From assembly GCF_003334785.1 (NCBI RefSeq), contig NZ_QOWV01000091.1: DNA of 271 nucleotides; one strand, given 5' to 3'. This DNA comes from Escherichia coli (GTDB taxonomy: Bacteria; Pseudomonadota; Gammaproteobacteria; Enterobacterales; Enterobacteriaceae). This document shows positions 1 through 271 of this stretch, one piece after another. The stretch's first letter is position 1. Each line of letters begins with the position of its first letter. Position numbers and translations under genes: made by a program. Below the pieces are notes generated by a model. That model saw only the letters and a program-made list of their open reading frames with translations. It ran no database searches and was not told the origin of the DNA.

Positions 1-2
1 TC

Positions 3-36
3 GTAGGCCGGATAAGGCGTTCACGCCGCATCCGGC
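3..36 (-). repeat. REP palindromic unit, Y type (copy 1)
   Basis: + strand reads GTAGGCCGGATAAGGCGTTCACGCCGCATCCGGC, the reverse complement of the Y consensus written 5'-GCCGGATG...CCTAC-3' (strand given in that convention; it would be + if REP is written GTAG-first). Imperfect stem arms 7-19 and 25-36 around loop ttcac (20-24). Confidence 0.8.
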
Positions 37-49
37 AATGGTGACAAAT

Positions 50-78
50 GCCTGATGCGCTACGCTTATCAGGCCTAC
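50..78 (+). repeat. REP palindromic unit, Z2 type (copy 1)
   Basis: GCCTGATGCGCTACGCTTATCAGGCCTAC; imperfect dyad with arms gcctgatgcg / cgcttatcaggc around a short central tac; terminal CCTAC (GTAG on the opposite strand). Head-to-head with the Y PU across the 13-bp linker 37-49. Confidence 0.8.
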
Positions 79-95
79 AGATTCTCGCGCCACTC

Positions 96-129
96 GTAGG
101 CCGGATAAGGCGTCCACGCCGCATCCGGC
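96..129 (-). repeat. REP palindromic unit, Y type (copy 2, loop variant)
   Basis: GTAGGCCGGATAAGGCGTCCACGCCGCATCCGGC; identical to copy 1 except the loop reads tccac instead of ttcac (t21 vs c114). Stem arms unchanged. Confidence 0.8.
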
Positions 130-142
130 AGTGGTGGCAAAT

Positions 143-171
143 GCCTGATGCGCTACGCTTATCAGGCCTAC
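143..171 (+). repeat. REP palindromic unit, Z2 type (copy 2)
   Basis: Identical to 50-78. The upstream linker 130-142 (agtggtggcaaat) differs from 37-49 (aatggtgacaaat) at two positions. Confidence 0.8.
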
Positions 172-188
172 AGATTCTTGCGCCATTC

Positions 189-222
189 GTAGGCCGGATA
201 AGGCGTTCACGCCGCATCCGGC
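189..222 (-). repeat. REP palindromic unit, Y type (copy 3)
   Basis: Identical to 3-36, including the ttcac loop. Confidence 0.8.
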
Positions 223-235
223 AATGGTGACAAAT

Positions 236-264
236 GCCTGATGCGCTACGCTTATCAGGCCTAC
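236..264 (+). repeat. REP palindromic unit, Z2 type (copy 3)
   Basis: Identical to 50-78 and 143-171; followed by agattct, the start of the tail-to-tail linker, where the window ends. Confidence 0.8.
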
Positions 265-271
265 AGATTCT

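Follow-up and report, generated by a model that had tools for sequence, protein, structure and literature searches.

The stretch of Escherichia coli DNA analysed here, which is 271 nt long and is called the window throughout, raises the question of what kind of repeat it is built from and whether that repeat does anything for the genes between which it lies. Arrays of REP/BIME elements have been known for 40 years, and a preliminary description of the window, made from its letters, had placed it inside such an array and regarded the element as a known class in E. coli and its relatives rather than a novel one. When the window was compared with E. coli K-12 by BLASTN it matched MG1655 exactly (340,071–339,801, minus strand, 100% identity over 271 nt), at an enterobacterial REP/BIME locus. 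Inspection of the flanking genes in K-12 placed this copy of the array in an extragenic position, between yahG and yahI. In a megablast search of 5,426 complete E. coli genomes, full-length matches of 100% identity were found at a single locus (yahH) in many E. coli, including K-12 strains and F' plasmids bearing that part of the chromosome, and related copies occurred in 5,426 of the 5,426 genomes, with no fewer than 27 places in the median genome. The exact K-12 match, these ubiquitous copies and a pairing of unit types seen in Enterobacteriaceae only, described below, agree with the view that the element belongs to a class already known.

In MG1655 the complete array is 360 bp long, with 3.9 copies and eight palindromes (L001 6757-7116). 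It extends ~45 nt beyond the window on either side and fills the spacer from the yahG stop codon to the start of yahI. The genes of the host cluster, yahD-E-F-G-(H)-I-J, are co-oriented, and the + strand of the window is antisense to them; PGAP annotates YahI as carbamate kinase and assigns YahG to the family of an oxamate carbamoyltransferase subunit. EcoCyc calls the array REP23, a name also used in PMC4765031 and in PMC11551758, where the locus appears as “yahH (filled with REP23 sites)”. These sources supply the name; the MG1655 RefSeq record used here contains no repeat_region features. The window covers the core of REP23, a REP/BIME array already catalogued, and holds nothing new. The value of the analysis for discovery is small. 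Its practical value lies in three corrections, which concern the type of the Z unit and hence the BIME class (Z1 and atypical, by published definitions), the yahH reading frame (most plausibly a by-product of the repeat) and the matches to naRNA4 (which mark a family).

Repeat geometry and unit type

Tandem Repeats Finder reported a period of 93 in the 271-nt window, with 2.9 copies, 95% matches and a score of 507. A repeat search recovered three 85-nt copies at 93/93 spacing and 96–100% identity, and in 200 shuffles of the window the 85-mer was matched 0 times. The geometry of the array is far beyond chance. Six palindromic units alternate in orientation, and every 93-bp unit contains two opposed imperfect palindromes together with their linkers (34+13+29+17 = 93). 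The window begins 2 nt ahead of a unit and stops 7 nt into a linker, so that no base lies outside the array. The period of 93 bp and the placement of the window wholly within the array, both put forward beforehand, were borne out by Tandem Repeats Finder, the repeat search and the shuffles; the six units, their inverted alternation and the linkers of 13 and 17 bp were recovered by the unit parse.

The GTAG-led unit, Y, is 34 nt long and reads GTAGGCCGGATAAGGCGTTCACGCCGCATCCGGC on the + strand, where it occupies positions 3-36, 96-129 and 189-222. Pattern parsing resolved the first Y unit into GTAG at 3-6 and an imperfect palindrome at 7-36 with an AA/GC internal mismatch. The second carries the loop variant TCCA, and the third was delimited by both the repeat search and the pattern parse. 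Linkers of 13 nt join the non-GTAG ends: AATGGTGACAAAT at 37-49, AGTGGTGGCAAAT at 130-142 (two substitutions relative to copy 1) and, by pattern parse, a third at 223-235. The inverted units, assigned to Z1 below, lie on the - strand at 50-78, 143-171 and 236-264, the last two being placed by pattern parse; the first is 29 nt long and reads GTAGGCCTGATAAGCGTAGCGCATCAGGC on that strand. CTAC and GTAG ends are joined by 17-nt linkers at 79-95 (AGATTCTCGCGCCACTC, the 17 nt found between arms in the repeat search) and at 172-188 (AGATTCTTGCGCCATTC, from the repeat search and the pattern parse), and the first 7 nt of the next such linker reach the window edge at 265-271. Copy 3 is identical in sequence to copy 1. 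Between copies 1 and 2 there are five differences, four of them in linkers and one in the loop of a hairpin.

The array had also been called the only content of the window, accounting for every base. All bases do belong to the array, but other features overlap it. The yahH CDS (b0322; MG1655 339,769-340,089) spans the whole window (1-271) on the - strand, and a second sense frame, that of the EHEC ORF X002, is open throughout as well. Three matches to the Rfam model naRNA4 (RF02564) exceed its gathering score of 59.5, at 6-75, 99-168 and 192-261 with 78, 72.4 and 78 bits, all on the + strand and antisense to the yah genes. The natural target of IS621, ATCAGGCCTAC, as given by Durrant 2024, occurs on the + strand at 68-78, 161-171 and 254-264 (3 matches against 0 expected).

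The units had been described as three Y and three Z2. The Y units stand as described, and the Z units have the wrong length for Z2: Corneloup 2021 gives 35 nt for y, 29 nt for z1 and 37 nt for z2. Because it is 29 nt long, as against 37 nt in the definition of z2, the second unit of the window is, on its sequence, Z1 under the published definition by length. The loci that papers describe as Y/Z2 (the BIMEs flanking rayT in Nunvar 2010 and Ton-Hoang 2012, and REP325 in Qian 2015), when read directly, have a Z palindrome of 36 nt, or 37 with the trailing A; this long Z reads GTAGGC(C/A)TGATAAGACGCGC.AGCGTCGCATCAGGC. The 29-nt Z of the window is identical to the short (second) REP query printed in Durrant 2024. 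Equating the short Z with Z2 was considered and dropped once Nunvar 2010, Qian 2015, Ton-Hoang 2012 and Corneloup 2021 had been checked against the actual sequences. The two types are easily confused, as papers conflict over the label for one and the same element: the Z flanking rayT is “z1” in Messing 2012 and “z2” in Ton-Hoang 2012.

The assignment bears on the class of the array. In the scheme of Ton-Hoang 2012 and Chiapello 2005, a BIME-1 is a single-copy pair of Y and Z1 with a long L linker, a BIME-2 is a tandem of Y and Z2 with short linkers, and atypical BIMEs comprise every other combination and are usually multi-copy. The earlier label of BIME-2-type is appropriate to the layout (tandem copies, 13/17-nt linkers, copy-number polymorphism) and inappropriate to the composition, which in a BIME-2 is Y with Z2. 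By exclusion, the accurate label for the sequence would formally be an atypical BIME with a BIME-2 layout (Y/Z1). A search through ~118 kb of MG1655 for the form of Z that accompanies Y across a long L linker, as in BIME-1, returned few short-Z units outside the yah array. At other Escherichia loci the 29-nt Z adjoins linkers of 34-35 nt that read …TGCAATATATTGAATTTGCA…, an association that is supportive and not exclusive, these genome-contig loci with L-like linkers having been picked by their short Z. The …TGCAATATATTGAATTTGCA… linker resembles the IHF-binding L motif of BIME-1.

Folding, RAYT features and copy number

All units are predicted to form stable hairpins. The per-unit RNA z scores run from -3.3 to -5.3 over both strands, and folds of the whole window gave z of -6.8 and -6.6. 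For Y the predicted RNA hairpin has -20.9 kcal/mol on the + strand and -21.3 on the sense strand (z -4.6 for Y unit 1), and for Z1 -13.2 and -12.9 kcal/mol, respectively; the corresponding DNA hairpins reach -12.2 (Y) and -8.6 (Z1) kcal/mol. In both the RNA and the DNA predictions, Y has an internal loop at AA/GC, and Z1 has a bulge of AA. In a set of 18 distinct units taken from eight strains, 98.4% of stem cells were paired, compared with ~30% when partners were slid, and unit C25_1 carried two compensatory stem changes (GGCG/CGCC to GACA/TGTC). In the same 18 units the palindromes are nearly invariant and the 17-nt linker is the most variable segment, with variation in 9 of its 17 columns. 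Neighbouring Y and Z1 units are also mutually complementary, and therefore a dimer can fold as one long hairpin (-37 kcal/mol) that is roughly as stable as two local ones (-34 kcal/mol); long-range Y–Z1 pairs of this sort also make up the minimum-energy folds predicted for the whole window. Which fold is adopted in vivo is probably set by folding during transcription.

Recognition by TnpAREP has been described as requiring GTAG, a stem mismatch and CT sites (Ton-Hoang 2012, Messing 2012, Corneloup 2021), and the sequence features needed by TnpAREP/RayT are all present here: the 5' GTAG, the AA/GC mismatch and the CT cleavage sites. GTAG with its lower stem, GTAGGCC[G/T]GATAAG, occurs three times per strand in the window, and two candidate cleavage motifs are present as well, TGCC/TGAT three times and CC/TAC six times (the slash marks the putative cut). 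The Y of the window is nearly identical to the y REP that was crystallised with TnpAREP. In MG1655 rayT (b0228) lies at 247,637-248,134, 92 kb away, where it is flanked by Y units and 36-nt Z units. The units fit the RAYT-associated group-2 REPs of E. coli, which are defined by GTAG ahead of a 30-40-nt imperfect palindrome with an AA/GC mismatch, by many extragenic copies and by a REP-flanked RAYT gene in the genome. On these sequence features the array is a likely substrate of the RAYT transposase.

When one genome per species was searched among GTDB representatives, the pairing Y–N(8-38)–iZ1 was found at 36 loci, all of them in Enterobacteriaceae (Escherichia albertii, E. coli, E. whittamii, two further Escherichia species, Citrobacter, Pseudocitrobacter, Pluralibacter and one unclassified member). 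A query made by joining the 3' end of yahG to the 5' end of yahI hit the yahG–yahI locus in 5,049 genomes, and a spread sample of these had spacers of discrete lengths (95, 142/143, 152, 235, 246, 329, 421 and 514/515 bp); parsing one example per length class confirmed the presence of 0, 1, 2, 3, 4 or 5 Y–Z1 dimers. Because the spacers parse as whole dimers, from none to five, the 93-bp dimer is the unit of gain and loss at this locus. Among the 57 full-length rows of the spread sample, one dimer (24 strains) and four dimers (17 strains, the K-12 state) were the commonest classes; five dimers, the class that includes O157:H7, were present in six strains, two in two and three in one, and seven strains carried none. 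The spacer of allele EC200461 (L009) is without any REP. Length polymorphism at a fixed locus has been reported for BIME-2 and atypical BIMEs (Ton-Hoang 2012, Chiapello 2005). The series from 0 to 5 copies at yahG–yahI offers a handy natural gradient for relating REP copy number to expression within an operon.

A proposed role in the yah operon and its alternatives

The explanation that we favour, and consider highly probable as a whole, is that REP23 is a Y/Z1 array that gains and loses whole dimers and that, when transcribed with yahD–J, would act through its hairpins, most likely stabilising the mRNA upstream and partly attenuating transcription downstream. A promoter and terminator scan returned no promoter and no intrinsic terminator inside the array. 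Because it lies inside a co-oriented cluster and has neither a promoter nor a terminator of its own, the array is probably transcribed together with yahD–J, and the mRNA would then carry it as successive stable hairpins. REP325 has been described as a stabiliser of upstream mRNA and a partly Rho-dependent attenuator between tandem genes (preprint 10.64898/2026.03.23.713779). By analogy, the hairpins of REP23 would stop 3'-to-5' exonucleases, thereby stabilising the yahD–G message that precedes them, and would partly attenuate transcription into yahI–J, in part through Rho. The number of copies could then adjust, strain by strain, how strongly the upstream genes are expressed relative to the downstream ones. 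An effect on translation may be added to these. The distance from the yahG stop codon to the first hairpin is 13 nt in six of eight alleles and 23 nt in the other two, and published work puts the range in which a REP can lower translation of the upstream gene at within 15 nt of the stop; at 13 nt, the array falls within the range in which yahG translation can be lowered.

The role that we infer for REP23 is thus one at the RNA level, of a kind already described for REPs generally. The preprint cited above (10.64898/2026.03.23.713779) reports that REP effects depend on context and that mRNA half-lives are not uniformly changed. Since the Z unit here is Z1, findings specific to Y/Z2 arrays, such as gyrase cleavage and the behaviour of REP325, may not transfer to this array. 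That REP23 and REP325 are oppositely oriented to transcription also counts against the analogy. Moreover, 31 of the 57 sampled strains have one dimer or none, and any function of the array is therefore dispensable.

This variability also lends itself to a different reading, in which the array is neutral or selfish: a non-autonomous element that is spread and resized by TnpAREP, by replication slippage or by unequal recombination, and that has no function specific to yah. Presence or absence of the array and its range of 0 to 5 copies among strains are what such an element would leave behind, as are an allele (EC200461) with a REP-free spacer and related copies scattered over at least 27 places in the median genome, and the reported effects of REPs are variable and context-dependent. 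Against it, the stems are nearly invariant while the linkers vary, and one unit shows compensatory changes, a pattern that gene conversion or recognition by RAYT could also explain; in addition, stable hairpins within an operon transcript will have some consequence at the RNA level. We hold this reading to be possible and somewhat unlikely. It is compatible with the origin that our preferred explanation assigns to the array, and the two differ only on present function.

A chief role in chromosome architecture would call for more than hairpins in a message. Here the array would supply naRNA4-like RNAs that bind HU and bridge cruciforms, or would serve as a strong gyrase site. The three Rfam matches above the gathering score point in this direction, as does the report that the REP325 RNA naRNA4 condenses DNA together with HU and that the antisense RNA works too (Qian 2015); according to the summary in Nunvar 2010, furthermore, gyrase is bound strongly by BIME-2 and by atypical BIMEs. 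Yet it is the strand antisense to the yah genes that carries the above-threshold matches; the sense strand scores 52.7-53.9 bits, below the threshold of 59.5. The second hairpin, being Z1, is 7 nt shorter than in the naRNA4 model: both hairpins are present, and in the alignment the second lacks 7 nt of the apex. The preprint 10.64898/2026.03.23.713779, which shares its senior author with Qian 2015, finds for REP325 neither compaction of the nucleoid nor contacts between REPs, nor a stable complex of HU, cruciform and naRNA4. Because RF02564 was built from REP325, a match to it amounts to membership of the repeat family, and the naRNA4 matches in this window mark that family and not a distinct RNA gene. 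An architectural role as the main function of this array thus appears improbable.

The remaining two alternatives involve translation of the array. In one, ribosomes would enter the array in some strains through one of its two open sense frames. The peptide made would not matter; the passage of ribosomes through the hairpins would open up the RNA and lift Rho-dependent attenuation. Neuhaus 2016 has already published parts of this idea. If it were true, the number of dimers and single-base indels in the linkers would act as a strain-specific switch on yahI–J expression. We give it little credence, about as little as the architectural role.

In the other, the array would encode a real protein, the sense-strand repeat protein YahH or EHEC X002. 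Neuhaus 2016 (PMC4765031) proposed that the ORF of the array is translated and spoke of a “triple function”. The same work reports ribosome footprints on the 465-nt ORF X002 of EHEC EDL933 (RPKM 56, coverage 0.61, RCV 0.64) and equates X002 with yahH, and the RefSeq annotation still reads “protein YahH”. However, two of the three sense frames are free of stops across the window, since the period is exactly 31 codons (93 = 31×3 nt), and K-12 b0322 and EHEC X002 use different frames over most of their length. X002 (L003 169-633) starts in an Arg-rich frame (MRRERLIRPT…) and enters the frame of K-12 yahH (…VGLISVAHQAF…) only past a 1-nt deletion in a linker; the name “YahH” therefore covers two proteins that are, for the most part, different readings of one repeat.

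Conservation does not favour a protein either. The length of the ORF tracks copy number and is not conserved across strains in one frame, and no ORF is annotated in the parsed examples with one dimer or none, allele sizes that make up the 31 of 57 sampled strains noted above. Variable columns fall 9/9/8 on codon positions 1/2/3, without third-position bias in this small sample of 26 columns. The ATG of the X002 frame lies inside the lower stem of Y, and the 24 nt upstream of it are without GGAG, GAGG or AGGA. Footprints on a repeat that occurs at dozens of loci and forms very stable hairpins would be prone to mis-mapping and nuclease-protection artefacts. Searched against NCBIfam, YahH reached no model at its cut-off, SidA for instance scoring 32.5 bits against a cut-off of 35; such sub-threshold matches are driven by the repeat and were treated as spurious. 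The yahH ORF is best read as a by-product of the 31-codon repeat period, and a genuine YahH protein is the least probable of the alternatives, very unlikely in our judgement.

Comparison with known systems

An RNA-level role for REP23 draws on REP325, which is also the system most closely resembling it. REP325 lies in the yjdM–yjdN spacer of E. coli K-12, is the source of naRNA1-6 and, like REP23, is a tandem array of alternating Y and Z units between co-oriented genes. The linkers of the two have equal lengths (13 and 17 nt), the repeat units agree at 80 of 93 bases and the 13-nt linkers at 9 of 13, and the window passes the Rfam model built from REP325. In contrast to REP325, with its 36/37-nt Z2, period of 100 bp and six units, REP23 has a 29-nt Z1, a period of 93 bp and four units in K-12, the difference in Z being a 7-nt apex indel. 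The two arrays are also oppositely oriented to transcription, and the sense RNA of REP23 runs iY and then Z1.

BIME-2 elements have in common with the window the tandem copies, alternating orientation, short linkers and strain length polymorphism, but they consist by definition of Y and Z2, whereas the window consists of Y and Z1. BIME-1 elements (RIB/RIP elements) combine the same unit types as the window, Y and Z1. They do so as a single pair with a long conserved L linker that often holds an IHF site, whereas the pair in REP23 is repeated (4× in K-12) with linkers of 13/17 nt. REPIN/RAYT systems, finally, resemble the window in that an inverted REP pair with GTAG at the 5' end, able to fold into a single long hairpin, occurs in a genome that also has the cognate rayT; REPINs are dispersed as single doublets, whereas the pairs of REP23 stand in a tandem array.

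Reading frames in the array and a weak promoter-like match in yahI

On the minus strand of the window, K-12 yahH (b0322) and the EHEC open reading frame X002 are different reading frames of one repeat. These frames cover window positions 1-271, 6763-7134 and 6770-7090 of the MG1655 stretch (L001), and 169-633 of the O157:H7 TR01 stretch (L003). Where the fourth linker has lost 1 nt, X002 switches frame. X002 has been equated with yahH and reported as translated (Neuhaus 2016). When translated YahH (L001 6770-7087) was compared with NCBIfam, three repeated stretches matched the cell-division inhibitor SidA at 32.5 bits, below the cut-off of 35 bits. 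This match is probably an artefact of short hydrophobic repeats.

A weak sigma-70-like match (TCGACT-16-GATAAT, 9/12) lies inside the 5′ end of yahI (L001 7232-7205, minus strand) and is directed into the array, in the window plus direction, which is the strand matching naRNA4. Chance alone would give 0.5 sites of this kind and the scan gave one, so the match provides no evidence of antisense transcription.

Allelic variation and recombinase target sites

The yahG–yahI spacer of E. coli EC200461 (L009 151-245) is a REP-free allele, yet it is no simple empty site: in place of the array stands an unrelated sequence of approximately 58 nt, which has a small palindrome of its own, CCTTCTCCCTTTTGGGGAGAAGGG. 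In alleles U12A and A24 the left junction is 23 nt long and different, compared with the usual 13 nt. The deposited ‘complete’ genome of O157:H7 TR01 contains N bases within one Z1 unit (L003 ~420-450), suggesting that repeats of this kind are difficult to resolve during assembly or polishing; some records may therefore give unreliable copy numbers.

IS621, whose recombinase is guided by a bridge RNA, has ATCAGGCCTAC as its natural target sequence, and every Z1 unit of the window includes it. There are thus three such sites in the window, at 68-78, 161-171 and 254-264 on the plus strand.

Z-unit nomenclature and tandem BIME-1-like arrays

The Z labels conflict between publications from overlapping groups, with one Z unit of the rayT-flanking BIME called z1 in Messing 2012 (PMC3479197) and z2 in Ton-Hoang 2012 (PMC3333891). 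The Rfam naRNA4 consensus contains the long (Z2) hairpin.

Escherichia sp. MOD1-EC7003 carries many long tandem arrays with a 114-115-bp period and up to seven matches per locus (L035, L038, L039, L040, L042 and L043). Within each repeat, Y is followed by a 17-nt linker, the 29-nt Z and then an L-like linker of 34-35 nt (…TGCAAT.TATTGAA…). Such arrays are BIME-1-like units repeated in tandem, in contrast to the BIME-1 of E. coli K-12, which has been described as single-copy.
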